This document shows, piece by piece, positions 5,008-36,851 of a stretch of 36,998 nt of DNA. Position 1 is the stretch's first letter. Each line of letters begins with the position of its first letter. The notes beneath the pieces are model-generated. The model had not been told where the DNA came from. It saw only the letters and a program-made list of their open reading frames with translations, and did no database searches. The DNA is taken from positions 1 through 36,998 of the forward strand of contig DF237698.1 of assembly GCA_000708835.1 (NCBI GenBank), written 5' to 3'. A program made the translations under genes and the position numbers. The stretch is from Klebsormidium nitens (taxonomy: Eukaryota; Plantae; Klebsormidiophyceae).

Positions 5008-8000
5008 TCAGCTTCTATCTGCGTTGCAGACCGAGCACATCTTTCTCCCCGGGCTGTTCTCCAGAGTGCACCTCTCACAGCTCCATCTGCCTGAAGCTTC
5101 CCCTTCCGAAACAGTGCCCATGACGTCATCTGCGGCCTTGTCCGGAAGTTGCCGAGCTTCGGAAGATCCATCGCCGTCCGCAGAACCGGAGCCGTCCGCA
5201 TCTTTCATGTCCGTATCTTGGACGCCCTCGCCGGCGGAGTAGTCTGACGTGGCGCCCCCCCATAGGCCCGTGCCCCGAAATCCGTTCTCCATCTTGCCCG
5301 CCTCCTCCGCAGGTTCGAAACACTCTGAGAAGGGCGGATGCGTCAGAATGATGTAACTTCGTCGTTTTCATTTCCTATTGTGAATGCGAACTCGACACAA
5401 ACCGATCAAAGCCTCGTGTCTCGACGACCACCTTTGAAATAGGTCAAAGTGACAAAGTGGAATAAGGTCGTTTGCTTCGGGGAGGGAGGCTCTAAAGTAC
5501 GACCAATGTAAACAAAAAGGCGTCACTTTTGCAGTGTCCGTGAATCAGATGACGGTTTCTAAGATATGAAACATATATTGCTCGCTTGGCCAAAGTATGC
5601 TCCCCCGCACGCCGGTCCTGCCAAGCTTATGTAGAAGACAATTACATTAGAACCAAAACCAGTACAAAGCCTGATCAATAATACCCCAAATGACTCTACT
5701 TCAATGGATCCTGGTATGATGTGGCAGTTTAAAAAAAAAATGTGGTTCTCACACTTGCTAACTGCTTACTCTCCCCAACCTAACTGGCAAAACATTCCCT
5801 TCTCGGAAACGTCCTTCCCAGAGACACATCTCCCCGACATAGTGCCGAAGACTGACTGGCACGAAAGAGCTATTCGTCCAGCTCGAATAGCAGGATGGTT
5901 ATCGATGAAGTATGGGCAAAGTAGCTGGCAAGGACATTCCATACGCAGGTCAAACAAGGACACGTCGCTTCTTAGATGGTCTTGGGCACCCTGGATCTGA
6001 GGCCATGTCACAAACCGCAGTCAGGCACAGTACAGAGAAGGTGGAACAATGTGGCTTCTTCACAACCTTTGCCTGGGACATGAGAGCCCCAGAGCCTGAC
6101 GTCATCATTGCCACGTGCCAGCTTACAAGCAGGGCAATGTCAGCACGTGTTGTTAAAATACAGGCGTGTGGAAAGGCAGGACTCAATTTAATTTGGAGGA
6201 TCTAGAAAACAGCTCGATCGTTTGAAAACCGTGCCCTGCAAGCTGGACGAGGGAAACACCGAGACTCGCGCACCTACGAAAGTCGAACGTATCGGATAGA
6301 AGCACAAGCGTCTGTTTACGCCGTAAGCTTCCATGTTGCCACCTTTCTCGATCTAGACCCTTGCAGAAGTGCGTCTTCATACCGGGACAAATCGTCAATG
6401 GTTTCATCTCAATTCTGAACCGAACCATATGTGTTAAGCCCAACGTTGCCAACAATCATCAAGAGCTAATTTCTGGTTGAAAAGGAGAGATAGACCTGGC
6501 GACAAACTCACCAACGATATCCCGGTTGTCATGCTCGCCCGTGTTGATGAGCCAGAGGCGGGAGTTAGCAACGATCCCGTAATCCGCCAAGATCTTATCA
6601 TCCTCGTCCAGCTCACTTTTCAGGAAACCTAGCCGCTGGTTCTGGGAGTCAACCTGCGAACATCAAAAAAAAAGACTCAGCTACTAATAAGTATGTTCCA
6701 AATAAGCCCTCAAGATCAGCATCGGCATCCTCAGCGGATCTTGGAACATAACAAAATTCGTCCAACAAGGATAACGAGGCATCGGATTTAGAGTGTACTG
6801 CCCATGGACGTCAATTGCATGGCTCGACTGTATGCACGCTAGATCCGAAGTTTCATAGCCAGACAAATTTTCGTGAACCCGGCACCAAAGCTGAGGCCAC
6901 ACTGGCACTTCCACAGAAATCCAAGTTGGAATCGGAGACTTCTGGGTTAAATATCCCAAGTATTAGTGTCTACCTTGGAAATGTCGTGCAGCGGACTTAG
7001 GTTTTAAGTTCGCAAGAACGCTCCTTCCTTCAACAAATGCAAAGATACAGAATCGCACCTCCATCCTCTCCCATATGGTCATCTTGAGGTCCTTCACCGT
7101 CGTGTCTGCATTCACTTTGACGGTCATCCTCCCCCCTCTGACGGCGGAAACCTTCCGCACGCGCCGAGACCGCCGCTCGCCCTCGCCGCCTGCGCCGGTG
7201 ACGTGAGCAGGGGGGTCGGGACCGGGGAACAGTTCGACGATGATCTCCTGTTGTCGGTACGAGAGGCGCTCTGCGAGTTCCTGGTCCAGGCGCTCCTTGT
7301 AGCAGGCCTCGCACACCTGCGGACGGAAACGGAACGGAACCGGAATGAGGACGGAGTGAGGATGAGTGACGTGAACAGGGGGGTCGGGCCTGGGAACAGT
7401 TCGACAATGATCTCCTGTTGTCGGTACGAGAGGCGCTCTGCGAGTTCCTGGTCGAGGCGCTCCTTGTAGCAGGCCTCGCAAACCTGCGGAAACGGAACGG
7501 AACGGAAACGGAATGAAACCGGACGGGAGCGGAGCAAAGGAGAGGACGGTAGAGGGATTTGACAATGATTTCCTAATGCCAGTACGAGAGGCGCTCCACA
7601 ATTCCTGGTCGAGGCGCTCCTTGTAGCAGGCCTCGCACACATGCGAACGAAACGGAACGGAAACGGAATGAGACCGGAATGTCAACGGACAGAAATAGAC
7701 GATGGACTAAAGAGGATTGGTACGAGCGGCGCTCCACGAGTTCCTGGTCGAGGCGCTCCTTGTAGCAGGCCTCGCACACCTGCGGACTGAACGGAACGAG
7801 AACGAGATGAGACCGGAACAGGAGCGGAGAAGGAAACGAATGGAGAGCGGAGGGGAAATAATTAGAATCCAGTTGCCAGTAAGAAGGCGCTGCGCGAGTT
7901 CTTCGTCCAGGCGCTTCTTGTACCAGGCCTCGCGGACGGATGGAACAGAACGGCATCAAAGGGAGGACGGAATAAAGACGAAGGCCGAAAGAAGGAAAAG

Positions 8001-11000
8001 GGCTTCGGAAAGCACTATTCACGGTAGCAGGCCTCAGGCAACTGCGGGCGGACCGGAATGGAATGTGGACAGACGAAGAAGCGCCTTCTGCGATTTAGAG
8101 GCCAGGCCCTGTACTTGGTCACGTCTGGTGCGTTGACGCGAAGGAGCCTTTCTGTCTTCTATAGAGTCCCGTTCCGTCCCGTCGAGTTTTGGAGCGTCTT
8201 TTGACAAATCTCTCTCCAAAGCAGGTGCTGCTACTTCCCAAACGGCGGACGGGTCCCAAAGTTTGTTCTAGAGCTGCCTTAAGGACAGCAGAAAGAAGAG
8301 AGAGGTGCGAGAGTCTGGACGGGTGCGGCAAATTCCTCAGAAGCGAACCGGGTCACAAGGTTCCTTGCAGAGCCGCCTTACGGGCAGCAAAACGAATTCG
8401 AGGAATGTACTCTTTCTTGACGGAGAAATACCGACGCCCTTATCAGAAGTCACATCTTAGGCGAAGACTTGCAGATTGGCGTGCATTCTCACCTCTGGTA
8501 CCGTCTTCAACCGGGGCACACAAGCCGGCTTGGCAGCCTCTTTCGTATCTGATTCTTTCGGCACTTCCGACTTTGGTTCAGGAGGCCCCACAACCGCAGT
8601 GATCTCCCTGGAGGAGTGCCACCGTTGCTGGAGCTGTCGCCAGTCGTTCTCTGACACCACGGTCAGAGCGGAGTCCTGCGGAAGGTGACGAGCAGTAAGC
8701 GGTGTTAAAAGGAAGGAGCTCCGTCGGTTGACACACATTTTCGGTAAAAAGGTGTCGCAGAAGCGCGCTTGGCCGCTTGGTAGATTGAAAGAAGGGTGCA
8801 GCCCTAGGCGTCAAAAGGCATGGAGCGGTGTCAGGAAAGACAAAATGGTAAAACTCGCCTTCTCCTGCTTGCAGTGCATGATTCGGATCGACACGCTTTG
8901 TTTCTGTTGAAATGTACGTCGATACTTCGAAACTGGGCCCTCGCAACTTCCAGTTTACAGAACCCAAACCTCCGGTCATCCGTGTCTGTACTTTTCGATT
9001 TGCCCACTAAACCTTACTTCGCCTCGGCGGGACTGAGGAAAACAAGACGCTAGGCACACAAACGAGCAGCTTAACAATGACACCATGCGCTCGCAACGAT
9101 GCGAAGTAGCAAAATTGCTGGCGAGTGTAACCACCTTAAAAACGGGAGACAACGAGGCAAGCAACTTCCGAAGCTTCCCACCAACGAAAATGCACTTGAA
9201 TATGTAATCTCGAAACCTGCACTGGCTGTGGCGGGCTTCTAATGCTGAAACCCTCGGAACCAAAACTCGAAAACCCAAGAAGCAAACAGATCTTGCCTCA
9301 CCTTTTGTTCCTGAACCAGGTCGTTCTTCCGCTGCACCAGCTCCGGCGGGCGCACCGCCAATTCCCCGTGCTTGCAGAACACCGCCGCCAGTGCTTCGTC
9401 CAAAGGGGGCGGCTCTCCAATCACGTCCAGAGTTTTGCCGGTCGCCCCCAAGTAGTCGCGCCAGCTGTCCAGCCATTTGGAGGGCACCAGGAACGCATTC
9501 ACACTCTCGGTGAGGGGCAACGGCCGCCCGGCGAAGAGGGCTTCGAGCGCCGCTTTCTCTGCAAGCTTGCCGCTCCTGCAAAGGCAGATTGATTGCCAAT
9601 ATTACAAGACATATATCCAAATCAGTTGCATCATCTGTTTGACAAACGAAGTCGCTCCCACTGTGCTGATGGATCAGGGTGTTTGCTGAGACCAGCTGCC
9701 AATAATGTATTCGGCCCTTCTGTGAGAAGACGCACCAACCAGATTCGGTCAGGTCTTTGGTTATTCTCGTGAGCCTGTTCAACATGTGTAGAGTTGCAAC
9801 ATCATACGTCTACTTCCGATCAATCTGCCAGCTGCAGTGGATAATGTATGGTAAGTTAGTGAGTTCGCTGCTCACGATTAGTCCATTGTATTAGTCCATT
9901 GTAGTGGCCACTGAAACTGGCAAGTTACTTGAATAAATCTCTAAGTCAAAAGCGTCGAAAGATATTGCAGCGTCCTCACTTGAGCCCTTCCCGGTTGGAC
10001 ATTTCTTCGCCCAGTTCCACGCTACACGTGGCACACTCCAGCGTGTTCACCGTCATCTCCCAGTGCCCCGGGTCGTTCGTGCCGGCCACTTCTTCCGCCA
10101 CCTCCTGAACGTAGTCCCAAAATTCCCCCGACACTAATTGCCGCTTGGCTCCTGGCGCAAACTCCGGCTTCAGCATCTCGTGCTTGCACCGCAGCGCAGC
10201 GGTAGGGCCCTTGTCGGCGTCTGAGGGGGCGTCAACCAATCGCCGCCGTTGCCATTGCGCCAGCCTGAAGGAGGGGGATGCGAATGCAATCATGCTTGAG
10301 ATGTGAGTGCAGGCGCGCGATGTGAAGCGAAGAAGGCAGTTATAGCCTACTTATATACCCTTCAGGTTTTGCAACTTGACTTTCAATTCAATCTAATTTG
10401 AGCAATAGGAGCGCAGATACGCTCAATGAGCGACGACAAGGTCAACCTTTTAAGAATTATAAGCGGAATCCCAAAGAAGGACAAACCAAGGGACTGCAAA
10501 GCGATCCAGCTTCTCAAACAGAGGAAATCAAAGTCATTGTCGAAGCCGGTCACACAAAATGAGGACCCCAGCACGTCCTTCCATCTGCTGCCAGGAAGGA
10601 ACGGCGTCTAATCAAAATGACCTTGCCCAACCAACTGCGTTGTCAAGTGACTAGGGTGGGACGACCGTCAACGACCAAAAGGCGTCGGATAAACGCCTAC
10701 CCAATTCCTTACTTACCACTGCTTGGACACGTAGTGCGTCCCCGGGGCCCCGAGCGCCAGCTCCTGCTCCAGCCGTTCCCGCATCAGCGTCCGTCGCGTC
10801 CGGAAACTGTCCGCCGACTGCGCCGCGCTCGCGTCCTGCCGTATACACTCGACGCAGCACTCCTCGCCGGTCAGCTCCGGTCCGCCCCCGTACCGCTCGT
10901 CCAGTTCCGCCCAGGTCACTTTGTTGATCCGTTTCATGAGCGGAACGCTCCGGGGCGGAACGCCCTCGTGCTCGCACAGCAGCGGCGTGTTGTCGATCGG

Positions 11001-14000
11001 CCCGGGGGGGTCCTTATTGTCGGCCCAGGACCGGAGCCATTCCGTGCTGATCCACCGGAAGTCGTATTCTTTCGGGTCCGCCGCGGCTTCCGCCAAGATC
11101 TCCCGTACCTCGCGCCGACGCTGATTCACCTCCGCTTCGATCCGTTCCCGTTCCGACTTGTATGCCTCGATTGCCGCGTCAAACGCCACGTTGTCGTTTT
11201 CCACTTCCCGCACCAACGCCTCCGGAGCTTCGATCGTCTCAACCTCGTCCAAAAGTTCCGAACCGTGGACCCCGTTCTGCGATTTCCCGCCATTCCCCGC
11301 TTCCCCTACCCCGTTCGTATGGACGCCCTCTCTCGACCCTTGCGCTGGCGAATCCAATGAAATCGCCTTTTCCGCGCTCGTCCCGGCAACCTCGTCTTTC
11401 GCAGCCTTCCCCGTCCTCGCGCGCTTCGGCACCTTCTCGCGGCCCTCGCCCTCGCTCTTGCGCTTGGTTTCCTTCCCCGCCGCATCCGCTCGAATTCTCT
11501 CCTCCTCTAGTTTCTTCGCGTCCGCCTCCGCTTTCCGCCGCCGCCGCTCCTCCTGCCTCTGCATGATTGCCACCTGGCGTGCGTCCCTCCGCCGATACAT
11601 CAGCATGTACGAATCCGCTGACGTCAGCAGGTTCGGATCCAGCACCTCCGCTGCAGCTACACCCTCCGCCTTCGACGGCCCGACACTCTCCTCCCCCTTC
11701 GCATCCTTCTCGTTCTCCCCACCTCCCTCTTTCTCTTCCGGTTTTTGGCCGTTCTCTTTCGCCTCTTTCGCCGCTTTCGCGCTCGCATTTGCTGCAGCTT
11801 CTCCCAGCGGGTGCGCCCCGAGTGACGTCACCAGTTCGTCATCGAACTGCCACCAGTCCCCGGTGCGCTCGTCCTTGACGTGCGCAATGTAGTGGCCGCT
11901 CGTGGCCATTGCGCCCTTGTGAACTAGGATGGCGGCTAGATCGTAGAGCCCCTCGCTGCTTCCGTCAGCGACCCACTCTGGTTCTGAGGAGGAAGGGGCC
12001 TGAGGCTCCGGAGTAAGCCGAGAGTGGAGGTCAATCGAGATCGGGAAGCTGAAGCGCGAGGTGACCTTCTTCTTTGTGGCGGTCTGCAAGAGAGAAGAAA
12101 CTTCTTGAGTCAACCTTCCAACAAATTTGATATCATTTAACTTTTTTCGGAAGCAGTGCCCGATGCTTAAAAATCCTCAGGATCACCTTCCTTAGTAGCG
12201 GAAAATTCAGGTCAGGCATCGTCCACAACAGGCTCGCTTACCAATTTGATGCTATGGTTTGCCTCACTGAAGTTCACATACAGATTGGAGAGGTCCTCAG
12301 GCGTGGCTGACTTCTCGTCGACTTTCTACCAGGTACGTCCAAGCTTTCCGAACCGATGAGCGAAGGGCAATACTTGCCTTCGACGCATAGAGTACAAGAC
12401 CAAGAGCGGCATCCGTCCATCAGAAGGTGCAAGCAAAGCTCTCCTATCTCGACGCCGCGGGATCAACGTCTCGGCACTTCAACACTCGACCTGAGGCTTC
12501 GTACCTTGTTGTTGAACACAAAGCGCTTGAGCTGAAAGTTGAGCAGCGGGGGCAGCGACCGAAGCTTCACGCTCCGTGTAGCGTCCACGCGCGCGTTGCA
12601 GCGCTCGCACATGTACTGGTTGTCGCCCTCGAGAAGCTCCTCCCCTAGATAGTCGTCTAGGCTGGTCGCTAAACCCTCAAATCCTTTTACGTTAACCTCG
12701 AGTTCATAGAAGTCGACCAGGTTCTTGGACGAATCGGACTCGTTGCCGCAGACCGAACACCTGAGATGGACAAAAGGAATTTGCATGCTTGGGGCCGTAT
12801 GGTTGACCGGAATGACTGTTCTCCTTCTCTCTCTCTTTCTTTCTCTCCCCCTTCCTCTGTCACTCTCTGTTTGACATGTTGAGAAGAAGCGAATGACCGT
12901 GGCAATGATGTTTACGTACGAGTAGAAAAAGACGAACGATGACGCAATGGCAGCATCTTCCAACATTCTGGAGACGAAGGATGGAAACGAACACAAGAAT
13001 AAGCAAAGACAAAACGGAAGAAACCCACGCACCTGGTGACGTACGAGAAGGTCCCCCGAAAAAGTCCTTGGACAAGGTTTCGGACGTCCGGCTGCGCAGA
13101 CTGCTCCAGCAGCTTCTCTAGCAGCGTCAGCAGCAGCTTCATAAACTCCTGGCCGTCCTGTTGCACGCCGTTGTCCAACTGGAGCGTCTTCGCAAACACC
13201 GCCGGATCGACAGGGTCCTCGTTCGATAGTTGCAGCTTCACGAACAGCCGGCAGAGCTGCCTTAGAACCGGGTTGCCCTCCAGCAGCTGCTCCTCGGTGC
13301 AAAACAACCCCTTTCTAAAGTCGGCGTTCATGTACAGGCACTGCAGGATCGCGTTCACGTAGCACGTCGCGCCAAGGTTGGTTAACCCGATCGGGTCATC
13401 GTGGGAGACCCGTTTTCGGAACGTGGGGTCTTCGCCCAGAGCGGAGACGGCTTCGGGGGTCTTGCACCAGAGCCCCTGCTTACGCACGCCGTTTGGGGGG
13501 GGTATCAGAGCACAGAGGCAGTTGGGGGAGTCTTTCGAATTGACACGGTCGCCCTGGCATACTGGTCGGTCCCAGTGGTACAGCTTGCCCTTCTCTGCAA
13601 AGCTCAGCTCCTTAGACGCAGCCACTTTCCTGCCGGAATGAGGTCAGCGCAGTGTCAGCAGTGCCAGCTGAAGGGAGGTATGCTCGGCAAGGGCATTGCT
13701 TGTGGACGATGGAGGCATAAGATGAAGAAAGTCTCGGAAGTGGATGTTCTCACAGCTTTTCGGTCTCGTCTAGATGAATGTGCCCCACCCTCAACAGAGA
13801 GAAAGTACCGAGCTCCCACAAAGGTCAAAACCATCATACATCCACTTATGCATTTTTGTCTAGAAAAGCAGGACGAGCTTTCGAGTGACAGGCACCCTTT
13901 GTCTACAGAGGCGTAATTGAGATTGTCACATGCAACTCAATGATTGAAAGACAGCACAGGCCCCGTTGAACTCTATCCACAATTGACACAATTGGACATA

Positions 14001-14197
14001 CCTGCTTTTCTTTGGAGCTCTAATCCTGCGAAAGGAAGACAAACCAAATGCTGTTTCTGAAAGATTCATGCGCAAAAGAAAAGTGGAACCACAACAAGAC
14101 AATTGAAACAACCGGGGTACTTTGGCACCTACCTGAGGACATCTTGCCTTGCCTCCCCAGCATCTTTCACTTTCTTCGTCTTAGCTCGAGTCCCCAT
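5008..14197 (-). CDS. UBP26: Ubiquitin carboxyl-terminal hydrolase 26 (USP48 orthologue); 10 exons, 1247 aa
   Basis: Exons (minus) 14197-14133, 13629-13033, 12760-12505, 12083-10717, 10264-9980, 9575-9302, 8675-8493, 7316-7059, 6653-6512 and 5324-5008 total 3744 nt with consistent phases. Cys box [25 protein letters not shown], His box [14 protein letters not shown] and WWQFDD are present, followed by DUSP-like segments and a C-terminal ubiquitin-like region ([18 protein letters not shown]...LADYGI). Closely follows plant UBP26 as recalled. Confidence 0.96.
7200..8062 (-). repeat. Tandem array of about 6 degenerate copies of the UBP26 intron-7 acceptor plus the 5' part of exon 8
   Basis: The motif (TTCCG)n-CAG|GTGTGCGAGGCCTGCTACAAGGAGCGCCT.GACCAGGAACTC recurs with exon-like starts at 7316 (functional), 7483, 7640, 7779, about 7933 and 8041. 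Unit lengths are about 167, 157, 139, 154 and 108 nt. Confidence 0.92.
8250..8396. repeat. Degenerate direct repeat, 99-nt period
   Basis: 8250-8297 versus 8349-8396 match at 37/48 positions without gaps (cgggtc.caa.gtt..tt..agagc.gcctta.gg.cagca.aa.gaa). Confidence 0.6.
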
Positions 14198-15150
14198 CTT
14201 TTCAGCAAGCGCGAACCACCTTCAGCTTTCAGTGACAACGCGCCCGAGGCGTCACATCGCAGCCAGACTCCTCGTGCTTAAAACGAGCCTCAGGTTGGGG
14301 CTTCCTGGCCGAAGGATGTGACCAACTCAAAGTCAGCTTGACATCAACTGTGCCTAGTGCCGCTTACATCAATTGAACAGGCTTCGCCTAGCTGTATCAA
14401 CAATTTGCGAAGGTTTGCTGCACAATCTTTCAGAGCCTTCAGCCAGACCCTTTGTAGAAGCTTCTTCAAGGTGCCAAGGAGTGTTTGGCGGCCTGCATCA
14501 CGAGCTTCCCCTCCTTCTTCAGCTCCTTTCTGACTCGATCTGGTCAGCTTGAACTCCTTCGAAAATAACTTTCTCTTTTTTCTGCGAATTTAAGGTAGTG
14601 CTTGGGTATCTTTGACGTACGACACTCGAGACTACCATTGTTGAATAGAATGGTATTCCAATAAAGTGGTAGTGTCAAGGGTTTGCCTTCCGGACCCTTT
14701 CTTACTCCGGGGTTAGAAGGATGGTACACTGCTGTAATGGTCACAGTCAAATTTTCGACCACTGGTGAAGGCGATCAGAAAGAAAGGAAGTTGAAGGAGG
14801 CGTTGGTGCGTTGGTGGGGCGCAATCAATCGTTCGTCCATTTGAGAGTATTCTGCAACAGTTCCCCGTTCTCTGACGAGGGCAAACGAGAGGGGCAGACA
14901 TTGTGGAATTGCTTGCTGTATCACTCGCTTCTGTTGCTGTCGCTTGTAGGTTGTGACGTGGCCGGAGCGAGTTGGAGATCTCTGTGCAATCGAAGGGCAC
15001 CACAGAGCAAAACTCAAGCCGCTGTCTTGACTTCGATTGTGAACCTCGATGGTGAGGTCTTGAGGAGGATCTGAGTGACGGATCTTGAAGCAAACAGAAG
15101 CTGCAAAGAAGCCGAATCAAATCCGAGAACACAGAGGCCAGTGCAGCAGC

Positions 15151-16566
15151 ATGGGGTTCTTCATCACCACCGTCATATTTCTGCTTGCGGGGTTCGTCGG
15201 CATCGGCCTCTTCCGGGTTCTTTACAACAAGGGCCCGGAGACAAATCTGTAAGTCAGCTTCATCTAATGGCACACGCAATTTCTAGAGGCAATTCAGATG
15301 CTTAAGTTCCATTCAAGGTGAAAGATGTGTTCTGAAACGATTTTCAGCTGCTCAACCATAGCGCCTGGACCTACGTTAGACAGAGCATCATTCAACCAGT
15401 TTCGTGGTAATATTGGCCTTGTCCTCGGAAGGTGAAAAGGAACTGCGCATACCGCCAGTCAAGCCAGGCCTAGTCTGCCAGTTTCACAGCTTCACATGCC
15501 TCTTGACTTTCTCTACTGCCTCGATTGCTGCCCTGAAGCAATGGCGAATTTACAGCCCTGCGAAGCGGATGGACACATTTTGGTAATCGAGAGTCATGCA
15601 ATAGATTAATGACAAGATTCTGAGCTTGAGTCCTTTGCGAATATGCTTGTCTGAAGTTGAAGGTGTCTTGAGGCATTCATATGTGAGCCGATTTGCCCAA
15701 GCTCAGGATCGGGCTCGGAAGATGCATCCTGTGGTTGACGTTAGTCTGGGCAAGGTCAATCTAGAGGCTGAAGGGCGAAACCATGTGTCGCTGCTCTGCC
15801 AACATGTGTGTGCTTAGAGCCAGGTGATACTTTGTGTGTCCTGTAAAAGACTGCAAGGCTGAACTGAGTGACGTGTCTGAGCTCGCCCACTTATCAGTGT
15901 CCATCGCCTGCCTGTCAACTCTTGAATGAATTATGCTTTGACTATCATTATTGGGGAGGGAACAGTGTCAATTGAAACGGATTTTCTCAGCGGGCACCAA
16001 GATGTCTTCGGTCACTGTGATGCATTCATTACTCAGTATTTTTAAAAGGCTTCAAATTAATTGGAGATCAAAGTAGGGTGTTGTGTTGATGTCCTCGTTC
16101 ATCGTTGTGGACTTTTTGCGTCGCAGGTTACACTACACCTGGGTGATCACTGCTACAATCTGTTGCTGGCTCACGTAAGTTCCGACCAGATGTTTCAGAA
16201 TGGGGAGGTGCAACTAATTGCTCAATTACATGACTGGGAAATCTGCTGATCAGAAGTTCCATGCAATCTTCATGAGATTGCTAGTTTGTCATATTTGACC
16301 ACAGGAAAGTTGTCTAAAAGCAAGCAGACTTATTCCAGAACCGCGCAGAGAAAGTCTAGCATCTGTGTATTTGATGCCTATGTTCTGTTGGTGAGCCAGC
16401 CCTTCTACAGGAATTTCGTGTGTTTCTGCGCAAGCCGCCTCCAGGATTGATCTCCCTTTCAGCATCTGCCAACTGATAGGTCCTTCCTCGGTGCAGGTGG
16501 GCTATCGTTTACATGGCGCAGATGCACCCTTTAGTTGTCCCTATACTTAAAGCAGAGGGAGAATGA
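15151..16566 (+). CDS. VHA-e: V-type proton ATPase subunit e; 3 exons, 71 aa
   Basis: Exons 15151-15248, 16127-16174 and 16497-16566 give MGFFITTVIFLLAGFVGIGLFRVLYNKGPETNLLHYTWVITATICCWLTWAIVYMAQMHPLVVPILKAEGE, with the subunit-e signature CCWxxWAIVYxAQMxPL. Not present in the ORF track because the exons are short. Confidence 0.96.
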
Positions 16567-17444
16567 GAACGTAAAGGAACAATCGTTTGAGTTGACAGCT
16601 CTTTGTACATCTAAAGCGAAGTAAATATGCAAGCAACGTCTTCCCATAGAATCTATGGAAGAGGCCTTTGAGCAGGTTTTATACAGGACATCTGCAAGAC
16701 AAAGTATTCATCCTTTAGCGATGGACGAAGCTGGCACAAGTTATCATAGCATCGCTCGTTGTTTCCTTCATGATCTGCAGTGTAACTGATCCTTGACCCT
16801 GCGGCAGGTTTCAAATGAACTGACTATATAACTGTGCATCTGATTGCAATGATATCCTTTGCCGAGGTGTATGCAGGCTCACAATGATCGTTGTTGCTGT
16901 GCTAGATATGATAGCTCACATGCCGCAGTGCTAGCTATATAGAGCAATGCTGGCAGTCACGTGCTGTAAAAATGTAGGTACTGAAACTTTGCAGCTAATC
17001 ATTCAGTGCCACAGTAATATGAATCTGGCTTGTATGTACGTCACTGAACACGAACTTGTGATTATGGTGCATGGCTGCCGGCAACATTGCATTGCCGTTT
17101 CGCGATGAGCTGCACATGATCGGTCCTGCATGGGCGCGGCCGCCCGTGCAGCGCGCCTGCCGCATTGAAGTACGTAACCTCAAATAAGCGATGATTCTTG
17201 AAGCGAGGCGGCTTATGGGTTTGCAGCATGCAGTGAGTGATTGGGACATTGTACATACAAGCACAACTGCAGACAGCCACCTAATCAGAAGTGCAAGACT
17301 CATGTGCATCGCGAGGCAGAACGATGGCTCATGCATCTTGCCGTGTCCGGAACATGCAGCAGGCTCATTTCGTTTTGGGAAGCTGATGCATGAGACCTCA
17401 CAATTGTCAAAGCGGACAGGCAGGCTATGGACGCAGTTTTCCCA

Positions 17445-20400
17445 TCAAAACCGGTGCTGCTTCTGAGTTTGAAGATCTGAAACAACCCGTGTTTCAAGGA
17501 CTCTATAGCGGAATGTGACGTACTCTACCCATGACAGGAGATACCTGCACGACCAATCAGAGGCATCAGGCGAGGCATCCGTACCGCTCGTGAAACATAC
17601 AAGCAGCCTGTTACAGCGGAACATCGGAATCATCCTCAATCGCCCTGTTCGGCAGCAAATTTTGTAGGATAGTGATGCTGCAGAGGTTTCCCTTTACAGC
17701 GGTGTTGAGTGATAACAGAGTCTCCGACTAGACTCCAATACAAGCCAGAAGGGACATCCCGCTGTCACGAGGTTAACGTCGCCAGAAGGTAATGAGCAAG
17801 GGGTGGAATCTGGCTCGAGCTTTGGGATAGGAACGTTCGTGTTATCCGCTGCATTCGTCAGGTTCAGCTATTTGGCGGGAGGCATCCAGGGTCGTGGCTT
17901 TGAAACGAGTTTATGGCAGTGCTCTAGGAGCCGGTTTTAAGCCGTGTTGTCTTCTTTCCCGATCGGCCGGCTACTCTCGATCGGGCAAACTTTAGAGCAA
18001 CGATTTTTGGAATCGCTCGTAATAAGTTTCAGTCAGATCGTGATCCGAACAGGTGCAAAGAGTCAGGGTCGTCACTCAACTCTAACGACTGAGTCCTTCG
18101 ACGAAATCCAGACCAAAAGGTCGTCACAAGATCCGTACACGAGACGTCAAACAGAAACCGGAAAAAGACGGGTGGCGGTAAAGGAATGGATGGCGAAAAC
18201 AATAGCGTAAAAGGACGGTGGCTCACAACAATAGGATCCAGACCGCCAGGAACTGGATCCAGGCATACTTGAGGACCTCCATTAAGCCCGGGATATAAGC
18301 CACCGACTCAAACGGCGGTATCCGTATCCGTTCGAAGATCGTGAAGTCGGTCCCATACCCGGCCTGCCAGACGGCATACGAGCTGACGAATTCCGTTGTC
18401 TCTGCGGATAAGATATGCGAAGGTAAGTGGACAGATGCATCAAACAGGGAACCTTCGAGCGGCGAAGACGACGATTTTGAAACAAGTCTTGAATGTACGA
18501 TTTGCTCACGGGCTCGACGCTCATGCCGTTGAAACCTAGGCCTTTTTTTGTTCCTGAAAACAGGAGCACAAGAAACGAGTCACTCTCACGGATGATCCTT
18601 CTTCCGACAAAAAAACGGGTGAGCCTTTAGCCGAGCAGAGAGACCGTCAATCTTTGTCAACAGCATGATTGCCAGGCCTGTATACAGAACAAAATGGCTA
18701 GAGCTCGTTTGTTAGGTTGGCAATTTTGGCCAGCAGATTGGACATCCTGAAAGTGCACTCATGACATGAGTCCTCAGAATGAGATGACGCTCACCATTGC
18801 GATCTAGATAGTCGCGCAGTATGGACTGCATTTGCACGCTTCGGCTGCAGAGTCGAAATTGACGGGATCAGAAATCCTGACTTGATCGATTCCGTTGGAT
18901 AAAACTTGTGAGCAGATCCCTGGAACTTGTTCTCTTCCAGAGTGGGAGCCGCTCGCTTTCGACCGTCAGTTCTGGTGATTGAAACTCCGTACAATGGGAC
19001 CTCATTGACTCTCTCCTCACATTTTCAGGGGGTTCAGGCGAACCTTCTGAACGTGTGGAATGCCAACGACGGCTGTACATCTATCGACATGATGCATCCA
19101 CCTTCCTCCACGCTCGCGCGTCGCTTTGCTCTAAAACTTTGTCAGATGTTCATTAGTGTTTCGGGAAATAGCCAACCACGTTACCACTCCAAGCAGCTCG
19201 AGCCAAACCTGCTTCGCAACTGGCGTCATCATCGTGCTCCTTTCGAAGGCTCGTCTCGTTCCTCGAGGCAAGAACCCCGCAATGTTTATGCTCTGCCCCG
19301 ACAGGCTCCTGAGAGCCAATTGCGCGTTTCAATATCTTCTGTGTGCTTTTTTGCAATCGACAACCGCTGTCTTGGTCGAAAGGACTCTTTCGAGTTTTGG
19401 CAGTCGGGGCACAAGGACCGGTAGGCTCACCTGTCCAAGCTCTGCCCTGACGGCCCCCCGGGAGCTAACGCCGGGACGTCGTACAGCACCCGGTTGTTGT
19501 CGAAGCTAAGCGGCCGCCTCTGGCGCAGCCGCAGTTCGCCGTCGACGTGTAACTCTGAGCCAGGGAGGGGCGACGCATGGTGGATGTAGGCTAGGCTCTG
19601 CATCTGCATGCGTATCCGCCCCTGCACGGAGTGGGAAATAAGTAAACGTTGGTGTCGGTGTTGTTGGTGTGTGCCTTTAGGCGCTTGCAGAAAGGAGTAA
19701 AGCCTATAACATCTGACACCAGTCGTCCAGCAGCTCCAATCGGGCAGGGAGTGGAGGGTCAAACCCCCTTTATCTAGCGCACCTCCCACTCCCTTATCAC
19801 ATCATGCTGGGCAAAGGCCATACGGTCGGCGATGGCCTTTTTTTCAAACTTTCAAATTCTGCGATTCTGTTGAACGGCTTTACCTGTATCTGGTACCGGA
19901 ACTGCAGCAGCAGCTTGACGCTGTGCACCGGCCCCGCGCCGCTGACACGCGCGCTGACGTCGATCACGTCTGCATTCCCGTCGTGGTCCGAGTCGGTCTC
20001 GGTCGCGCGCACTTCGACCGCGGCCAGCTTGTTCGCTAGAGCGCTGTTTAGCGTGGGGAACGTGCTCCAAAAAATTTCTTGACCGGGACCCTTTCCCTGA
20101 ATGGAACGGGAAAATATCTTTGAAAGACTAAGGAGTGGGGGATATACACGAAACTCAGTTGCACGCAACTCGAGTAAGTAGCGCAAGCGGTGTTCACGGC
20201 AGGGAAGATCGTTGTTGAATGTTCCTGGCCAGGAATAATTGCCTCTAATGTGATTTGGGACGTATCTGCTTTCCAACAACATTTCTGCAAAGAAAGATCG
20301 GACTACTATGTAATCAAATTACTACACACAAATACGGGGGTGCTGCCAACTCAACAACGTCGAAGGCGTGTCACTCCTGTGCACTCAAAGACTTGGAAAC

Positions 20401-22365: not shown

Positions 22366-23563
22366 ATGTTTCAAAAAGTAGCTCTCTTGAAGTGGGCTCG
22401 CCAAACCCAGACAGCCCTGCGGGGTTCGCAGCAGCAGATTCAGGGCCTCGTACATACCACCACTTACATCAAAACCCCAAGGGAGACTTCCTTATTCAAG
22501 ATTCAAGGCATTCCAGCTACCGTTGATCAACAACACTCCAAGCTTACAACCAGGAAAGGAGACTCATTTGAGGCGCCGGTCGCTATCGGCAACCCTCCCC
22601 GCTTTGAACATGAAAAGCCAGGGGAACTTCTTCAACCTTCTGACCCCTCCCAATTGGTGCACAGGCCGGGTTTGGTAGCTCTTATGTCAAAGGACGTAAC
22701 TGCAAAGTTAGGGAAGCCTTTCCTTGGCTGCAAAGCTAACAGACTCCACTCAAACGCCCAGATCTGTGCATTGCAGAACAACTTCCCTCACAACAGCGAC
22801 TATGTCATTCAGACTGCTGTTTTGCCCAAGTACCATAGCGTAGCATTTTTTCATCGGTGGCTCCACACAGTGTCAAACGCATCAGTGGAAGGCCAAACGG
22901 ACCCCTGGCCCGTTGAGATCAAGGTACAGAAGAAAGGCAAGGTGAGACATTGATCTTTCAAAAGGACCACCATTATGGGCTGCCTGGAGGTGGTAAGTAG
23001 GACCCAAAGAGATTGTCAGCTGCTGTCAAACTGCCAAAACTGTTAGGCTGGGACAACTCGCAGGAGATTTGCAGGAGGACGTTAATCCCTGAGTTTATAG
23101 TTGCAGGAGCTCTTTGAGTTCGCCTTGCCTACGGGTGTTCAACTCTCGTTGCAGATTGCATTGCCAGCAGAGCGTGAAGCAACATGGTTTCTTTTCCTGC
23201 GGACTCAAGTCACGCTGACTCTCAAGATCACAATTGCAGGTTCTGGAAGTTGCCTTTGCAGACGAGCAGCGCTTCACATTTCCAGCAGAGCTTCTTCGAG
23301 TTGAAAGCCCTTCCGCCGACAATCGTCGCAAGGACCAAACTGGCGCAACGAGGTTGGTATCTGGAAGGAAGCATGTAAGCATTCTTGGAGTGGAGCCTGT
23401 GGGAAACTACGCTCTTCGTGTAAAGTTTGATGACCTACACGAGAATGGAATATATACGTGGAGATATCTCTACGACCTGGGAAAGAATAAGTACTCGCGT
23501 AGTAAGGCATACATCAAGCACTTGCGAGAGAGAGGGCTGTCTCGAGAACCTAAGCGGCGGTAG
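22366..23563 (+). CDS. DUF971 / gamma-butyrobetaine hydroxylase-like N-terminal domain protein with long N-terminal extension; 2 exons, about 299 aa
   Basis: Exons 22366-22941 and 23240-23563 (phase 0). The C-terminal domain reads PVEIKVQKKGKVLEVAFADEQRFTFPAELLRVESPSA...SGRKHVSILGVEPVGNYALRVKFDDLHENGIYTWRYLYDLG, a DUF971 pattern. The start codon is less certain than the domain. Confidence 0.82.
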
Positions 23564-29900: not shown

Positions 29901-30953
29901 TGGAGGTAATTCTTAGCATCGAAGCCGCTTAGGTCGAGAGCGCAGCATTTAACAAAGAATCGTTTCTCTTTCAGGAACTGCGCGAGACCCTCAAGCCGGC
30001 GTCCGGCTCCGAAGGCTCCATGGCCGGCGCCGCCATCCTCCCCCCCCCTCCCGCCGACCCCCCGGGTCCCAGCAGCAGCTCCCGAGACGAAGCGCCCACC
30101 AGCGAGCGCCCCCCCGAAACGGTTCCGGGGGGCGACGCCACACAGGAAAAGGAGAAGCGGAGCCGAAGCCCTGAGGAGCGGTCAAAGCGCCCGGTAGAAG
30201 GCCCCGGGCGAGACCGAGATAGGAGCAGAGACAGGGAGCGGCCCGGGGATGTAGACCGGGGCCTAGCGAGGGTGAGGGAAAGCGATCGGGACAGGGACCG
30301 GTCGCGAGAAGGGGGCCGGGATAGTAGAGATTCGCGCGATCGGGGGAGTCGGGACCTGGCGGATCGGCTCGGGGAGAGGGAGAGGCGGCCGGACAAGCAC
30401 CGGCCACCTTCGGGCAGGGGTGAGACGTCGCTTTGGAGCTGATTCTTCAATGTGCTTAGGGTCGATCGGCCGCTCCTTCTGTTAAATTTTCTGGTCCTCT
30501 TGCAATCTAATTTTGTTTGCTCACTGCTTTGCCGGGGGATGGATTGTATCCGGCTGCTTCACGGCAAGGCGCTACTGCAGGTCAGGTGCAAAACTGCTCA
30601 CTCCTTTGAGAAAGGTCTCAACGAAATTCACAAGAAGGCCGTCGCAAGAGCCCACTTCAATCAATACTCCGTACAGCGGCGGGAAGGCTGCCCTTGATAG
30701 CGCAATGGAGCTCTCAGTCCTCTTCTTTTGCCTCATTTTCAAATCCGCATCGGTTTGGAAAAGTCAGCACACTGCATGGACAATTGTCTCATTTTGCCGA
30801 TCCGCGGGTTCGCAGAGTAGTGCATTTAAACCCTTCTTATACGCAAGCCTTGCTCGTCTTGCAGATCGGGACGGACGGCCCTTGTACATGCCTCGCGAGA
30901 AGGACAAGGGGCACCGGCATCATCCTTACGAGCGGCCGGGGTACAAGCGTTAA
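26974..30953 (+). CDS. CYCL1: Cyclin L1 with Arg/Asp/Ser-rich C-terminus; 6 exons, 450 aa
   Basis: Exons 26974-27207, 27743-27889, 28345-28514, 29097-29364, 29975-30419 and 30865-30953 total 1353 nt in frame. Segments MIYTTLDTFYLSDEQLADSPSRKDG, LPQAVAATGQVVLHRFYCKKS, RTERHILKEMGFICHVEHPHKF and VPLPENPPW match plant cyclin L1 as recalled. Confidence 0.96.
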
Positions 30954-31214
30954 AGGAAATTTCTTGCGCATGCATCAAATCTATGTCGTGATCGAGGCTT
31001 GGGAGGAGGGACAGGCGGGGCTGTCTCTGGTCTTTTTGCAAAGCTTGCTCTAGAGTCTGGCATTCGTGCTGGGATCGATCCCAAAATGTTGACAAAATGG
31101 ACGTCCAGAGTATGTCATGATTTGACGCAAAAGATGGAATGAGGAGCTCGGCATGATGCGGCCCCTTGTCATAACGAGCTACCATAATCTGTCACGCGTA
31201 TAGGAACACACACG

Positions 31215-32121
31215 ATGGATGTTACAGCCCTGTTGTCTGGAACAAAGAGGTCAGACAGTACCGTAACTCAATACAAAAGCATTTTGAACCGTCTGCACAC
31301 ATGGTGACAGACTCGGACGATGGTGAATTTTCTGATCTTGAATGGTTGCGGGACGTGGATGCCGTCATGGCCGCTATTGCGCATTATAAGCCGTCTTCCA
31401 AAAATTGTATCTCGTACCGATCGTCGTCTTACTCAAAGCAACCAAAGAAGGAGAGCTGCTCATCCATTACACAGAAGAGATGGACAAATGTCTAATTTAA
31501 GAGATCACGGACAACGAAAACCTGGCGCAATCCAAGACCGACCGCGAACTCAAGAACTGGATCGCCTTCGCCGATGTCGCAGATAAGATCAAAAAGCTCC
31601 AACGCTGCATCAAGAACAAGATTGTTCACAAGAAAGTCGAGGAAATTATATCTCGAGGATAGAAAGGTCATCACACACCACCTCATACTGAGCCTTTATT
31701 TTCGGATCAACCGCCTCAGGAACGATTTCGGAGACGTAAAGATCATACCTCACGGCCGCGAACAGACAGAAACAGAACAGAAGATGAACGTGCTCGTCGA
31801 GAAACCCTCCGGCTGCTACACTCTCCGACTCTCCCTCTGAGACGCTACAAAACACACCACGCTTACGGTGACCAGTCACATACTAATTTTGCCAAATCCT
31901 TGAACAAAGTCGTTTCCGACAGCCTTCGGCTCTTTCCCAGAGCGTGTCTGCTATCCAATCCTAAAAATGGTGACATACCCATGACCCCCGCATACCTGTC
32001 GCAGACTTCGTCCCAGATATTTGCAAAAGAGAACAAGCGGGTGGGATCGTGGATGCTCCGAAAGATCTTCTTGAGCGAAATCTATTGTCCAGAGATGCTC
32101 ACCACTCATACTCACCAGTAA
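31215..32121 (+). pseudogene. Disrupted tyrosine recombinase/integrase of Polinton-like virus / virophage / large DNA virus type
   Basis: Intronless relic reconstructed across about 4 frameshifts and an in-frame TAA (31498-31500): MDVTALLSGTKRSDSTVTQYKSILNRLH / EFSDLEWLRDVDAVMAAIAHYKPSS / YLVPIVVLLKATKEGELLIHYTEEMDK..*EITDNENLAQSKTDRELKNWIAFADV / HLILSLYFRINRLRNDFGDVKII / LRRYKTHHAYGDQ...PMTPAYLSQTSSQIFAKENKRVGSWMLRKIFLSEIY. The C-terminal catalytic His/Tyr segment is missing. Family call is by motif recall. Confidence 0.78.
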
Positions 32122-32949
32122 TGAAATCAACAATGCAGGTGGGTCTGGCTCCGTGCCGCAAGAAGCTAGCGAGCTGCTCCGCCCGGTCGCGCGCGCTGGC
32201 GACTGCAGCGAGCTGCGGGGCCCACTGGCTGGACTGGCGCTGGCCCACCCCGGAATATGCTATGTTTGCAGCCCGCTGCCGCACTGCCGCCCATCGCTTA
32301 GCGCTGCTTGCTCACGCGCCTTTAGCTGCACATTGCTGCAGAAGTCTGCCACCCTGGCGCATGCTCAAAAATGCAATAGCTCAGGCTGGCAAGAAGAGCG
32401 TCATGTCCCACTGCCAGCTTTTTGTATCACACCTTCTCGTCTCTCAGTTGGCTGCATCGTTCAACTTGTCTTACGTAACAATTCATGATGCTTTCATGTC
32501 ACATTGATGCCAATGGACTAAGTAGAGGTCTGCATGCACCTGTGTAAGGCCTACAGTTGCTGCATCAGCGCCAAAAAGCTCACAACATCCTCCAGCCTGA
32601 AATTGGTGACCGCACTTTGAGCCTCCACCTAGAGCGGCCCGCGCGATTGAGAGGTCGGTAGGTCTCAGAGCTCACTGGGTAGTCCAGGACGCCCTCGCGG
32701 GAGTTCGCAGTGCAGACTTGCACACTCTGTCTAGGGTAGGAGGATCCTTAGTAGAGACCGAGATCGAGGCTCGACTTGTATATTTTCGGACTGTTCAATG
32801 GCTTTGCCGACCCATTTATACCGGGCTCGTGTGTGCGTATCTATGTTATAAGGAGGCTTCAGCATGTGCATTTCTCTCATGCCCTCGTAGCTAGTACTGA
32901 TGTCCTCTGCTCTTTACAAGCAGTACCTACTTAGATTGTCAAGCAGCGC

Positions 32950-32982: not shown

Positions 32983-33380
32983 CGTTCCGTGTCCCGGAAC
33001 GCCGGACGCTGAATGCGTACCGGCTGCCGTCGGTCACAATCCGTCAGTAAACTGACCGCCGATGGCACACCTTGGCATAGAATCGACGGTTCAAATGTAC
33101 TATGCTCGTGACTCGAACCTCGGTGCTCGGTTGAAACTTGATGACTCCGCCGTACTACTCTTTGCAAACCCAGCGACTCTTGACTCCCCAGGCAACGGGT
33201 AAATTACAAGTCACTGTAAGAATTTGAAGACCTGCGCCGCAAAGCGCCGGGGTCGCCGGGTCGTACTTTGACATTGGATTTGAGCAAACAGAATTGAAGC
33301 CCCGACTTCGATGTAGTCCGTAAAATTGAAATCACTGTGAAATCTGCATGCGCCGGTCTGCGGGATGCCCAAAAAGAAGG

Positions 33381-33450
33381 AAACTCTGCGGGATTCGAAC
33401 CCGCAACTTTAGGTTTTCGACACTCCACGCTACCGCTACGCTACGCTCAG
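33381..33450 (-). ncRNA. tRNA-derived pseudo-element (Pol III A/B boxes; tRNA pseudogene or SINE head)
   Basis: Minus strand reads ctgagcgTAGCGTAGCGGTAGCGtggagtgtcgaaaacctaaagttGCGGG-TTCGAAT-CCCGCagagttt. The T-arm is perfect (B box GGTTCGAATCC) and the D-arm is A-box-like, but the acceptor and anticodon stems do not pair. Confidence 0.7.
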
Positions 33451-33536
33451 ATCCCCCGGGCACAACTCTGTCCACGGAAATTCAAGCCAAAGGGGTTTTA
33501 TAGGGGCACGCCCACTGGTGCAAGAAGGACAATCTA

Positions 33537-34201
33537 CACTATTATATTAGTGTCTCCGGTCGATCTGTCAGAGTAAATACTCTCACAGGGCGTCAATCTG
33601 TGCAGGCATTGGTTAATGGTCTGACATGTGTCAGAGTGATCTGTTTGCTTGGAGTGCGGGACTCCGGTCCTTTGACCGGGCACCGACATGGTACCGAGCT
33701 ACTTCCCGGGGACCTCTCAGTTTCCCGGTGACACTGCACAATGCACAGTCACTGCCTTTTCAGTCACAGTCACAGTCACAGTCACAGTCACAGTCTAGGT
33801 ACCTCTTACAGTGTCCGGTGTCAAGACTGAAGACCCACAGTATGAGTCACAATTGGTTTCTGGCAGGTAAAAAAGCGCCACACTCAGTACGGTCACAATT
33901 AAGGTTTAATCCTGTCTCTGTCTTAGTCTCAGTCACAGTTAGAGTCTCAACCACAGTCACAGTGTCAATCATAAAACAAAGTTACAGTCACAGTCACCCG
34001 ATAACCGTATTAGGTAGCTTAAAAAGATTGACACAGAAAGATTTGGCGGTCGTCCAGCTACCGGCCGGCGATAGCAACTGCCCGGTGACCGCTGTGCAGA
34101 TGTGGTACCTACCGGCCAGCTTCATAGATTTGTTCATTTATGGTCGCGGCACGGGAGGGTGTTAACACAGAAGAATTCCCGGAGACACTAATAGAATAGT
34201 G
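33537..34201. mobile_element. 665-bp non-autonomous DNA transposon (MITE) with CACTA termini and TA flanks
   Basis: Left end CACTATTATATTAGTGTCTCCGG (33537-33559) and right end CCGGAGACACTAATAGAATAGTG (34179-34201) form a 23-bp inverted repeat with 1 mismatch. TA is present on both sides (33535-36, 34202-03). No transposase ORF is present. Confidence 0.82.
33761..33795 (+). repeat. (CAGTCA)n microsatellite inside the MITE
   Basis: About 5.8 perfect CAGTCA units, with further scattered CAGTCA/CAGTCT units to about 33997. Confidence 0.9.
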
Positions 34202-34422
34202 TACTTTGTCCTACTTGCCCCACTGGTTGCTGGAGGGCTTCTTCTGCATGGAAGTCCCTCGGAAGTCCTGCCTCCTTTCCCGGAAACCCCGCGCACTGTG
34301 CGCGTAGCATGTGCCCCGACAATATTGGGCCCGAGTTTCGCGAATTAATGCTTCCGTTCCACGTGGCGCGAGTGCCAGGCGCTATCTGTGGGTCTCTCGT
34401 CACTGGTGGAGAATGGTTCTCT

Positions 34423-34730: not shown

Positions 34731-36851
34731 ATGTCGAAACAAGCGGGAGAACTCAAAAGCCGAAGGGATGGCTATTGGGAGGGGCTGCTCCGCTGGTTCC
34801 TCACCCTCTGCCTGTTCCTCTTTGCGACATGTCTCTTTCTCTGCTTCCTGCTGATATTCACTGACGCCACCCATGGCTACCAGGCGCTGGTTTACGCACC
34901 GTCGGCATATGCTGGGGGTGCGATTCTGCATTGTGCTGCTGAACTTAGCAGCCGCAGGGGTGGGAATTGCCATCGCATCGGCTGCGGCTCTGCTGGCGAC
35001 GCAGGTGCGGAGCTATCTGCTGACTGTCCGGTGGCCTGAAGACCAGTGTCCGGTCGGCTCTGCAAAAGCCTAGCTTTGGCATGAGCAGCCTCAGCGCTGT
35101 CCGTGCTGGGCGCCTCGATGTGCCAGGGACCTTCCTGCTGGGGCTTTTACTATTGCTGAGCCTGGCTGTGGCCCAGGTTGTAGCCATTGTGGCAATTGGT
35201 ATCACCACAACTACCGAGCGGCACATTGAGGGGCACGTTGGCATAGAAGCCTTTGGCGCCTGCTCAACCCAGCTGACAGCGGAAACGATGCACGGAAATA
35301 CAGTATCTCTGGGCCCAACGGACACAGACGAACTGGTGTCTAGTGTTGCCGAATATGCCCTTCGGAGCCCCAAAGTACTGCTTGTTGGCGGAGACTCCAT
35401 TGCAAAGCTGTACAATAATGGGCAGACCAACTCATCAGGCAGGGAGGAAATAATCTGTCAACGCCCGGGCTATCTTTCCCTGAATCATGTACGTGCTGAA
35501 GCTCTGGAAGGGATTGCTTGCAGCACTGTAAGTGGTTGCTAAATGAAGTCTATACTCATTGCTTGCTTACATAAAGCAGTAAAGCATTGTTGCTTGCTTG
35601 GATCAAGCATACCAAACACACTGTCAAGCTTGGAAAGAGTGGACCTCTCAAAGCTTTCCTTGCAAGAACTTAGAGGTTGGACTGCATTCTGAGACTAAAC
35701 ATCTGATAGAAAGTGATTGCTCACGAGATAAGAACCTAAGAGCTGAAGAGCTAAGGGAGATAATCAGCCGAGACCTAACCTTCTGTCCCTCTCCTCTCAT
35801 GCAGACCGGTGGACCAGCGCAGCTGCCGATGAGAGGGATTCGTGGAAACCGGAGCTTGATTGTAGAAACGACAGCCTCACTTTACACGACATTTGCAAAC
35901 TGTACTCTTGGATCCGGGCGCTACGAAACCTTGGCACCTAGCACCCCGTGGTCAAGTCTGGGGCCCCCTATGAGTGAGACAAACGAAATCTCGCATTTCT
36001 GGTTCTGGTATGGCCTGGTGAAAGGTCCTCAGGGTGGGCAGGTGCTAGAGCTTCTCGGCATGGATTGCTCTTCGTACTTCTACTTAGCCGAGAAGAAGCG
36101 TCCCAAGCATGCCAACTGCTCCGTCATGTACTCATGCAACACGACGGTTTCCCTAACCAAAGAGCCCCTGAGTATCTCGCTCTTGGAGGGGGAGCAGCGG
36201 CAGTACACCCGAAACCTGTTGCCATCAGCACCGAATGGGACTGTGCTGACTGACCTTCACGGGGCGCTAGGGTCGTTTGACAATCTTCTGACCAATGTGT
36301 CCAAGTGGTCTAAGCAATATTATCTTCCGGGGATGGGGAACGCGGTCATCAAAACGATGCTGTTCCCGGGGCGGCCGTACTCCCTTGCGATCCAGGAGCC
36401 AGAAGGGCTGCTCGCAGCAATGTGGGCAGTCCAGGGCATTGCCAGTCGTTGGCAAGAGTGCAAAGTAGAGTGGGGTGAGCTGCCGGCGGGGGAAGACTTC
36501 TTGGTCCTGCATGTGATCCCTGGAGTTATGGGGCCCATTGCTGCGGCATTTGGCGTCGTTGCAGCGCTGCTCCTTATCGCGTCCTTACTTCTCGAGCTGA
36601 CCTCCAAGGTCAACCTCCCCTCCCATCCAGAGCTAGCTGTCCTGGCCCAGAGTTCGGAGCAGTGCCGGGTGTACATGCTGGGCTTCAGCAACGCACGCGA
36701 TAAGGACTGGGATAGGTGGACGAAGGAGCATGTGCTGCACGTGCATAACGAGGAGTCGGCCACGGGAGCGCCCCAATTGGCGCTGGCAATCGAAGGTACC
36801 CGTACCCGTGATACTTGGGTCTCTCACGGGCCGAAGGACTTGTACGGTTGA
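34731..36851 (+). CDS. Uncharacterised multi-pass membrane glycoprotein-like gene (3 N-terminal TM, large Cys/N-glycan-rich loop, C-terminal TM); 5' end frameshifted or split by ultra-short introns
   Basis: Exon ...35081-35527 splices (GT-AG, phase 0) to 35805-36851. Sequons NSS, NRS, NCT, NCS, NTT, NGT and NVS are present, with C-terminal TM VMGPIAAAFGVVAALLLIASLLLEL. Upstream hydrophobic segments lie in two other frames (from 34731 and about 34918). Confidence 0.7.

Follow-up and report, generated by a model that had tools for sequence, protein, structure and literature searches.

Tyrosine recombinases of the OLV11-like type occur in Polinton-like viruses (PLVs), in virophages of the Organic Lake group, in PgVV and in Aureococcus anophagefferens virus (AaV), and the mechanism by which PLVs integrate is presented in the same report as predicted rather than demonstrated (PMC4642659). 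In PgVV-like PLVs, the tyrosine recombinase is described as the most widespread of the information-processing genes (10.1101/2022.07.28.501842). PLVs of the PgVV group are also found as endogenous elements of green algae, at low copy number and with a recombinase as a usual integrase, and the tables of that survey include seven capsid loci of the group in Klebsormidium nitens (cluster PC_0089/86; PMC10120064, Tables S1, S4 and S5). Phycodnaviridae-like inserts have been reported from K. flaccidum/nitens as well (PMC5294986). Since endogenous PLVs of K. nitens are already catalogued, a viral fossil in this alga is by itself unsurprising. Crypton and DIRS transposons, too, are mobile elements of eukaryotes that depend on a tyrosine recombinase and whose copies persist in decayed form. 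Tandem intron-poor tyrosine-recombinase genes are moreover known from Amoebidium, whose genome holds giant-virus and adintovirus inserts; this likeness is one of description, and the Amoebidium clusters differ in reaching up to 50 kb and in being flanked by Plavaka transposases (PMC11244446).

The locus presented here lies in a window of 36,998 nucleotides of K. nitens (contig DF237698.1 of assembly GCA_000708835.1), by which we mean the whole stretch of DNA that was analyzed. It holds the remnant of an intronless recombinase gene whose intact relatives share with the OLV11-like enzymes a length of about 300-330 aa, the fold, weak or absent Pfam matches and kinship with proteins on virophage, PLV-like and giant-virus contigs (PMC4642659), but differ from them in forming a clade of their own, which shares only about 30% identity with each of the viral members sampled and carries a WxxR motif, and in the present copy being dead. 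What is new here is this separate clade, with intact members and an inactive partner, and the ending of host RNAs inside the fossil.

The recombinase remnant and its decay

The remnant occupies positions 31215-32085 of the plus strand and corresponds to residues 1-285 of intact, intronless proteins of 314-316 aa, at 75-76% identity. In a frameshift-aware alignment, the 315-aa protein P0001 is identical to it at 212 of 281 positions (75.4%), with a score of 995 as against 32-46 for ten shuffles of P0001. The original prediction, made from the letters of the window, had chained five ORF pieces into one intronless protein; the pieces are where it put them and fall into this single alignment, and the motifs that it quoted (e.g. 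LEWLRDVDAV and QSKTDRELKNW) and the Arg codons at 31718 and 32059 are all correct. The same holds for the lesions, claimed near 31300, 31400, 31645 and 31835 together with a TAA at 31498: the alignment has -1 frameshifts at ~31299 and ~31400, a +1 frameshift at ~31648, a -1 frameshift with a few extra codons at ~31823-31835 and the TAA stop at 31498-31500, that is, four frameshifts and a stop between 31299 and 31835, and there is one extra codon at 31885. The right end had been set at 32121, which has to be moved inward, as homology stops at 32085 and the final 11 codons of the frame past this point are unrelated to the recombinase. The sequence does break off, as foreseen, before the catalytic end: the last 30 residues are missing, including the catalytic His and Tyr, and the 32 C-terminal residues of P0001, with the His303/Tyr312 stretch, have no match anywhere else in the window. 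Equivalents of R167 (31718), K208 and R277 (32059) are retained, H303 and Y312 are lost, and an open frame with the catalytic His and Tyr, as in an active recombinase, is lacking. With four frameshifts, a stop codon and neither His nor Tyr, this copy cannot cut DNA.

These lesions are present in the DNA itself. A contig of DNA run X1 spans 30306-32722 and is identical to the window at every letter, and contigs of DNA runs X2 and X3 carry the same lesions, the three runs representing one sample that is possibly the window's own source. Transcript contigs of other samples carry the lesions near 31400, 31498 and 31835, and a transcript contig of run X12 also covers the one at 31648, while the lesion near 31299 is covered by the DNA sample only. 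Of 102 sites that are invariant among the other members, 6 are substituted in the remnant, compared with 0-3 in nine intact members left out in turn (the divergent member P0017 gives 57 of 159 in the same test), and its end branch in the tree measures 0.20 versus 0.05-0.08 for the others; substitutions at invariant sites and a long end branch point to decay without selection. A signature of methylation and deamination was not seen in the remnant, where the CpG observed/expected ratio is 1.11, and a sigma-70 scan, which is inapplicable here, found nothing.

Fold, close clade and viral relatives

The intact gene encodes a protein of Cre/Xer-like fold with R-K-R-H-Y catalytic residues. The AlphaFold model of P0001 (pLDDT 93.5) has the two-domain tyrosine-recombinase fold of the Cre/Xer type, with XerA, XerH and Cre as its top PDB matches, and all 35 PDB matches listed belong to the tyrosine-recombinase superfamily (XerA, XerH, Cre and variants, integrases and a protelomerase). 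These PDB matches come from bacteria, archaea and phages, with identities of 9-15%; viral proteins match the model far better than they do. Among the viral structures, the best named matches are proteins of AaV, Pyramimonas orientalis virus (PoV), Tetraselmis virus 1 (TetV1) and Heterosigma akashiwo virus (HaV01) (E 1.6e-11 to 1e-9), with the AaV protein first at 1.6e-11 (the top match is unnamed); Hokovirus and Qinghai Lake virophage proteins are matched as well. Of the 13 close relatives that were aligned, 11 retain the full set R167, K208, R277, H303 and Y312, and the first catalytic His position of the close clade is occupied by W, which gives WxxR, or by S. Pfam and PHROGs scans of the recombinase pieces of the window, like Pfam scans of the six closest relatives, gave matches at chance level only. 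At E 0.001 the family comprises 9452 clusters and is thus a large one. Its three best Atlas clusters consist to 94-100% of viral members, most commonly of the phylum Preplasmiviricota. A viral-type recombinase, as originally predicted, is therefore what the fold and the named or placed relatives on giant-virus, virophage and small PLV-like contigs support. The check proposed along with that prediction, which looked for a missing profile match or for best matches among cellular, DIRS or Crypton enzymes, was run, and it left the viral type standing.

The close relatives belong to Klebsormidium where they are named. With the last ORF piece (31840-32118) as query, six proteins were retrieved that measure 295-316 aa and are 64-84% identical to it, and the named members of the clade are K. 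nitens KFL_008240010 and KFL_009170060. In an IQ-TREE analysis of 44 sequences (12 of the clade, 7 giant-virus, 11 of 53 virophage, 7 small-virus and 7 unplaced), the remnant, with X at its breaks, groups with P0001, P0002 and P0013 at a support of 100/99, and the close relatives form a separate, long-branched clade on one side of a branch supported at 100/98. Ten of the 11 sampled virophage recombinases fall on a branch of their own (100/100) with the Klebsormidium clade outside it; among virophage, PLV-like and giant-virus sequences, the tree settles no sister group for the clade. Intact relatives had been expected to survive elsewhere in the genome, and they do: intact genes exist, and DNA run X2, which holds the locus of the remnant, also contains a paralog contig of 3261 nt with 17 differences over 31967-32078, which continues beyond the break into the missing C-terminus, where its frame reads the same as KFL_008240010 does over the C-terminal stretch. 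This contig is the only paralog found in X2 at a level of at least 80%, so the recombinase presumably has few copies in the genome. Other members of the clade are damaged as well (P0006, P0008, P0011, P0015 and P0016). No locus of the close clade, and with it no capsid, ATPase or polymerase gene tied to the clade, was found in viral contigs (including IMG/VR), metagenome contigs or prokaryote genomes, and one viral-contig scan returned two virophage loci that are 24% identical. Neither did a full-text literature search covering few subscription journals return, in the texts it reached, a description of the clade or of the KFL genes and proteins.

Relatives with a viral gene context are about 30% identical to the close clade. 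We fetched 101 such loci, of which 80 are the best 80 of 297 from one virophage-type query, a sampling that favors the virophage subfamily. An ORF of the virophage-capsid cluster, both tested members of which are virophage major capsid proteins, is present in 56 of the 101. Seven are giant-virus-like by name or, in a scan of 131 ORFs, by genes for capsid, TFIIB or topoisomerase II. Several others are small contigs that encode a Walker-A ATPase and a primase. This distribution fits membership of the OLV11-like family, a putative and indirect placement made through the virophage, PLV-like and AaV relatives; the family might thereby gain a separate clade from a charophyte alga, a near relation of the land plants. 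Compared with the window, 311 ORFs taken from the first 20 viral loci matched it at the recombinase only, and with these queries neither capsid genes, A32-like ATPase or polymerase, nor NCLDV genes, were found in the window. A PLV-type terminal inverted repeat was not found at the remnant either. In these respects the locus differs from the endogenous PgVV-group PLVs of green algae. The 20-locus query set holds no PgVV-group capsid, so that a diverged capsid remnant in the window could be missed.

The virophage contig L020 encodes, at 8799-11450, an 884-aa protein with a distant recombinase domain, and its stretch 1363-17557 also holds genes for YqaJ and for two capsid proteins, the minor one of 1287 aa and the major one of 882 aa. 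The small viral contigs L015-L018 share three consecutive genes of 450-630 aa without Pfam match, a primase and a Walker-A ATPase; we take them to resemble the Trimcap group.

The carrier of the gene and its inactive paralogs

The remnant had been attributed to an integrated dsDNA virus or to a recombinase-only mobile element. The viral type of the gene is borne out by its fold and relatives, and as carrier a PLV, a virophage, a giant virus or a capsid-less element each come into question. We think it probable that the source was a small integrating DNA virus, above all a PLV of the PgVV group, and that the remnant is a dead fragment of it; the seven published capsid loci of this group in K. 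nitens make a PLV the likeliest carrier. The intact enzyme would have integrated and excised the viral genome, and about 1 kb (31111-32086, comprising ~100 nt upstream and most of the gene) may have been inserted, or have stayed behind, downstream of cyclin L, with a copy of one 8-bp sequence on either side; the fragment would afterwards have decayed without selection. The two copies form a direct repeat, at 31103-31110 (14/16 columns with gaps), a possible left edge of the insert, and at 32087-32094, which begins a single base beyond the point where homology stops. A direct repeat as long, noticed here post hoc, is matched by 1.5% of random window positions (1.0% with gaps). The repeat suggests that 31111-32086 arrived, or was left, as a single piece. 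Sequencing depth over 32087-32630 equals that of the flanks.

The close clade has a further peculiarity. The K. nitens gene model KFL_009170060 consists of an intact recombinase fused to a second, diverged copy, and such diverged copies form a family of their own (proteins of 243-286 aa and two fragments), which nests inside the close clade in the IQ-TREE analysis. They have lost K208, R277, H303 and Y312, and mostly R167 as well. Five of the seven inactive paralogs have a longest contig equal in size to that of an active-type recombinase (116760, 3018, 2325, 3534 and 7952 nt), and the contig of 2325 nt leaves little room beyond the pair. From these sizes, an active recombinase and its inactive duplicate appear to be linked in the subclade of P0003, which contains all such pairs and is the sister of the window's subclade. 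The window's own subclade shows no such match (0 of 8 contig sizes), and the window holds no second recombinase copy. A profile that detects all seven inactive proteins found no second recombinase in any of the 99 viral loci with this recombinase, which sets the sister subclade apart from the sampled viruses. The inactive protein may act as a helper or regulator; its structure model (pLDDT 39, from an alignment of 7 sequences) is uninformative. A full-text search that left most subscription journals aside returned no report of inactive recombinase paralogs associated with Polinton-like elements. It is a tentative possibility that the remnant belongs to an undescribed Klebsormidium element family in which an active viral-type recombinase adjoins a conserved, inactive duplicate that, by binding DNA or the active enzyme, governs how fast or in which direction integration and excision proceed, perhaps in an element that has lost its capsid and moves as a transposon. 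The intact members of the clade are open to assay, and the inactive duplicate of the sister subclade would be a natural regulator to test. As a separate observation, the inactive set comprises P0234-P0240 and the C-terminal half of P0232; these are conserved, and none lies in the window.

Could the remnant itself derive from a capsid-less Klebsormidium DNA transposon with a virus-derived recombinase and, in some lineages, an inactive copy as helper or regulator? The separate, long-branched position of the close clade, the equal-sized contigs and the fused gene model, and the lack of such pairs in the 99 viral loci and of close relatives in IMG/VR would agree with this. We nevertheless regard it as somewhat unlikely, because copies per genome are few, the linkage is drawn from equal contig sizes alone, the window's subclade has no matching partner and no ends of such an element are known. 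Moreover, lineage-specific duplicated genes are also carried by small viruses.

Still less probable is an origin from a giant virus (Nucleocytoviricota) that became endogenous, which we consider unlikely. The best named structural matches are giant-virus proteins, the giant-virus-type relatives adjoin NCLDV capsid, TFIIB, topoisomerase II and YqaJ genes, and NCLDV inserts are reported from the host genus (PMC5294986). However, the seven sampled giant-virus recombinases form a branch (99/98) that excludes the Klebsormidium clade, the Atlas neighbors belong mostly to Preplasmiviricota, and a search of the window with the ORFs of the 20 viral loci detected none of the genes of giant viruses.

Host transcripts and repeats around the remnant

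The gene upstream is cyclin L (best PDB match Cyclin-L1, E 1.8e-17). Its stop codon ends at 30953 and leaves 261 nt up to the ATG of the recombinase, in good agreement with the ~260 nt first estimated. The last exon and 3' UTR extend over 30864-31293 (+), as transcript contigs end at 31174, 31176, 31250, 31268 and 31293; three of the five runs have cyclin L contigs that enter the remnant. One of them has a loose oligo-A end at 31268; an A-rich genomic stretch follows there, so internal priming is possible. From the other side, an antisense RNA enters the remnant. A splice joint from 31604 to 32116 (32103 in X12), with the CT..AC ends of a minus-strand GT-AG intron, was found in all five transcript-type runs (X5, X9, X12, X14 and X15) and in none of the three DNA runs; the five represent four coded studies and one run without a study, and their transcript nature was judged from splice joints and tails. 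On the minus strand, the upstream exon covers at least 32116-32730, as far as the contigs reach; the intron (31605-32115, its donor at either 32115 or 32102) takes in that half of the remnant which corresponds to the catalytic domain, and the last exon (31321-31604) lies inside it. In X12 a contig ends at 31321 in a loose T run, which is a non-templated poly(A) tail; the genome has no T run there, and this contig, for itself only, thus fixes the antisense strand and the 3' end. Host transcription thus enters the remnant from either side, and the antisense RNA, which is spliced and polyadenylated, has its 3' end there. The two RNAs converge, with no overlap in any contig. The locus thereby offers a view of a viral fossil absorbed into the transcript ends of its host. 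A coding role of the antisense RNA was considered and rejected, the longest ATG frame in the spliced RNA being 42 codons.

One might suppose that the remnant has been co-opted, with the antisense RNA and the 3' end of cyclin L converging to regulate cyclin L or to silence related viral copies, as the splice joint recurring in every transcript-type run, the poly(A) site at 31321 and the entry of cyclin L contigs would allow. We hold this to be quite improbable, since the observed 3' ends stay apart (31293 at most versus 31315 at least) and the antisense RNA lacks a long frame. Cryptic splice and poly(A) signals are frequently used in repeat-driven RNAs, and the RNA ends in the remnant would be an opportunistic use of this kind. 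Co-option concerns present function and is compatible with a viral origin. Finally, that the recombinase is of a cellular, DIRS or Crypton type, or that errors of assembly have broken an intact gene, is extremely improbable and largely refuted by the viral neighbors and the repeated lesions: weak Phage_integrase matches in 12 of 75 family members (best E 1.8e-4) and the low-identity PDB matches stand against the lack of relatives in prokaryote genomes and the phage collection, the lack of any Pfam family of Crypton type among those listed (25 of 49) or for the six closest proteins, the lack of Pfam matches to reverse transcriptase-RNase H or Crypton-type domains in the pieces, flanking frames and closest relatives, neighbors in sequence and structure that are viral, and lesions seen in three DNA runs (of one sample) and in transcript runs.

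The antisense promoter likely lies in a high-copy repeat at 32630-32850 (-), where a TATAAA box (32820-32815) is a candidate element. This repeat is unrelated to the recombinase. The remnant had also been thought to head a 3-kb repeat cluster, which the sequence does not support: the repeats cover ~1.7 kb (32630-~34330), begin ~540 nt past the break and have no relation to the recombinase. Other copies of the repeat at 32630-32850 extend past 32630 with a minus-strand sequence starting with TGG, which we take to be like a primer-binding site after an LTR. At 33219-33516 (-), a second repeat, with a related contig in run X9, has a tRNA-like head (33388-33443; Rfam tRNA E 0.12, below threshold) and is possibly a tRNA-derived SINE. 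A non-coding element of 699 bp at 33520-34218, likewise unrelated to the recombinase, has terminal inverted repeats (36/41 matching), an exact 9-bp target-site duplication (33511-34227 overall) and internal CACAGT repeats, with many related contigs in the DNA runs; its anatomy is presumably that of a non-autonomous Mutator-like element.

Elsewhere in the window, 35024-36851 (+) holds two frames, one of 172 and one of 422 codons, which contain hydrophobic stretches, lack Pfam matches and likely form one unannotated membrane-protein gene. A multi-exon ubiquitin carboxyl-terminal hydrolase gene (UCH match) lies at 6963-13643 (-), and its exon-sized repeats of ~140-170 nt at 7211-8063 look like a tandemly duplicated short exon. 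Host genes at 23219-23563 (+) and 19797-20318 (-) match GBBH-like_N and TM231, respectively; the latter is a ciliary transition-zone protein family, and a TMEM231-like gene would be notable if the host has no known flagellate stage.
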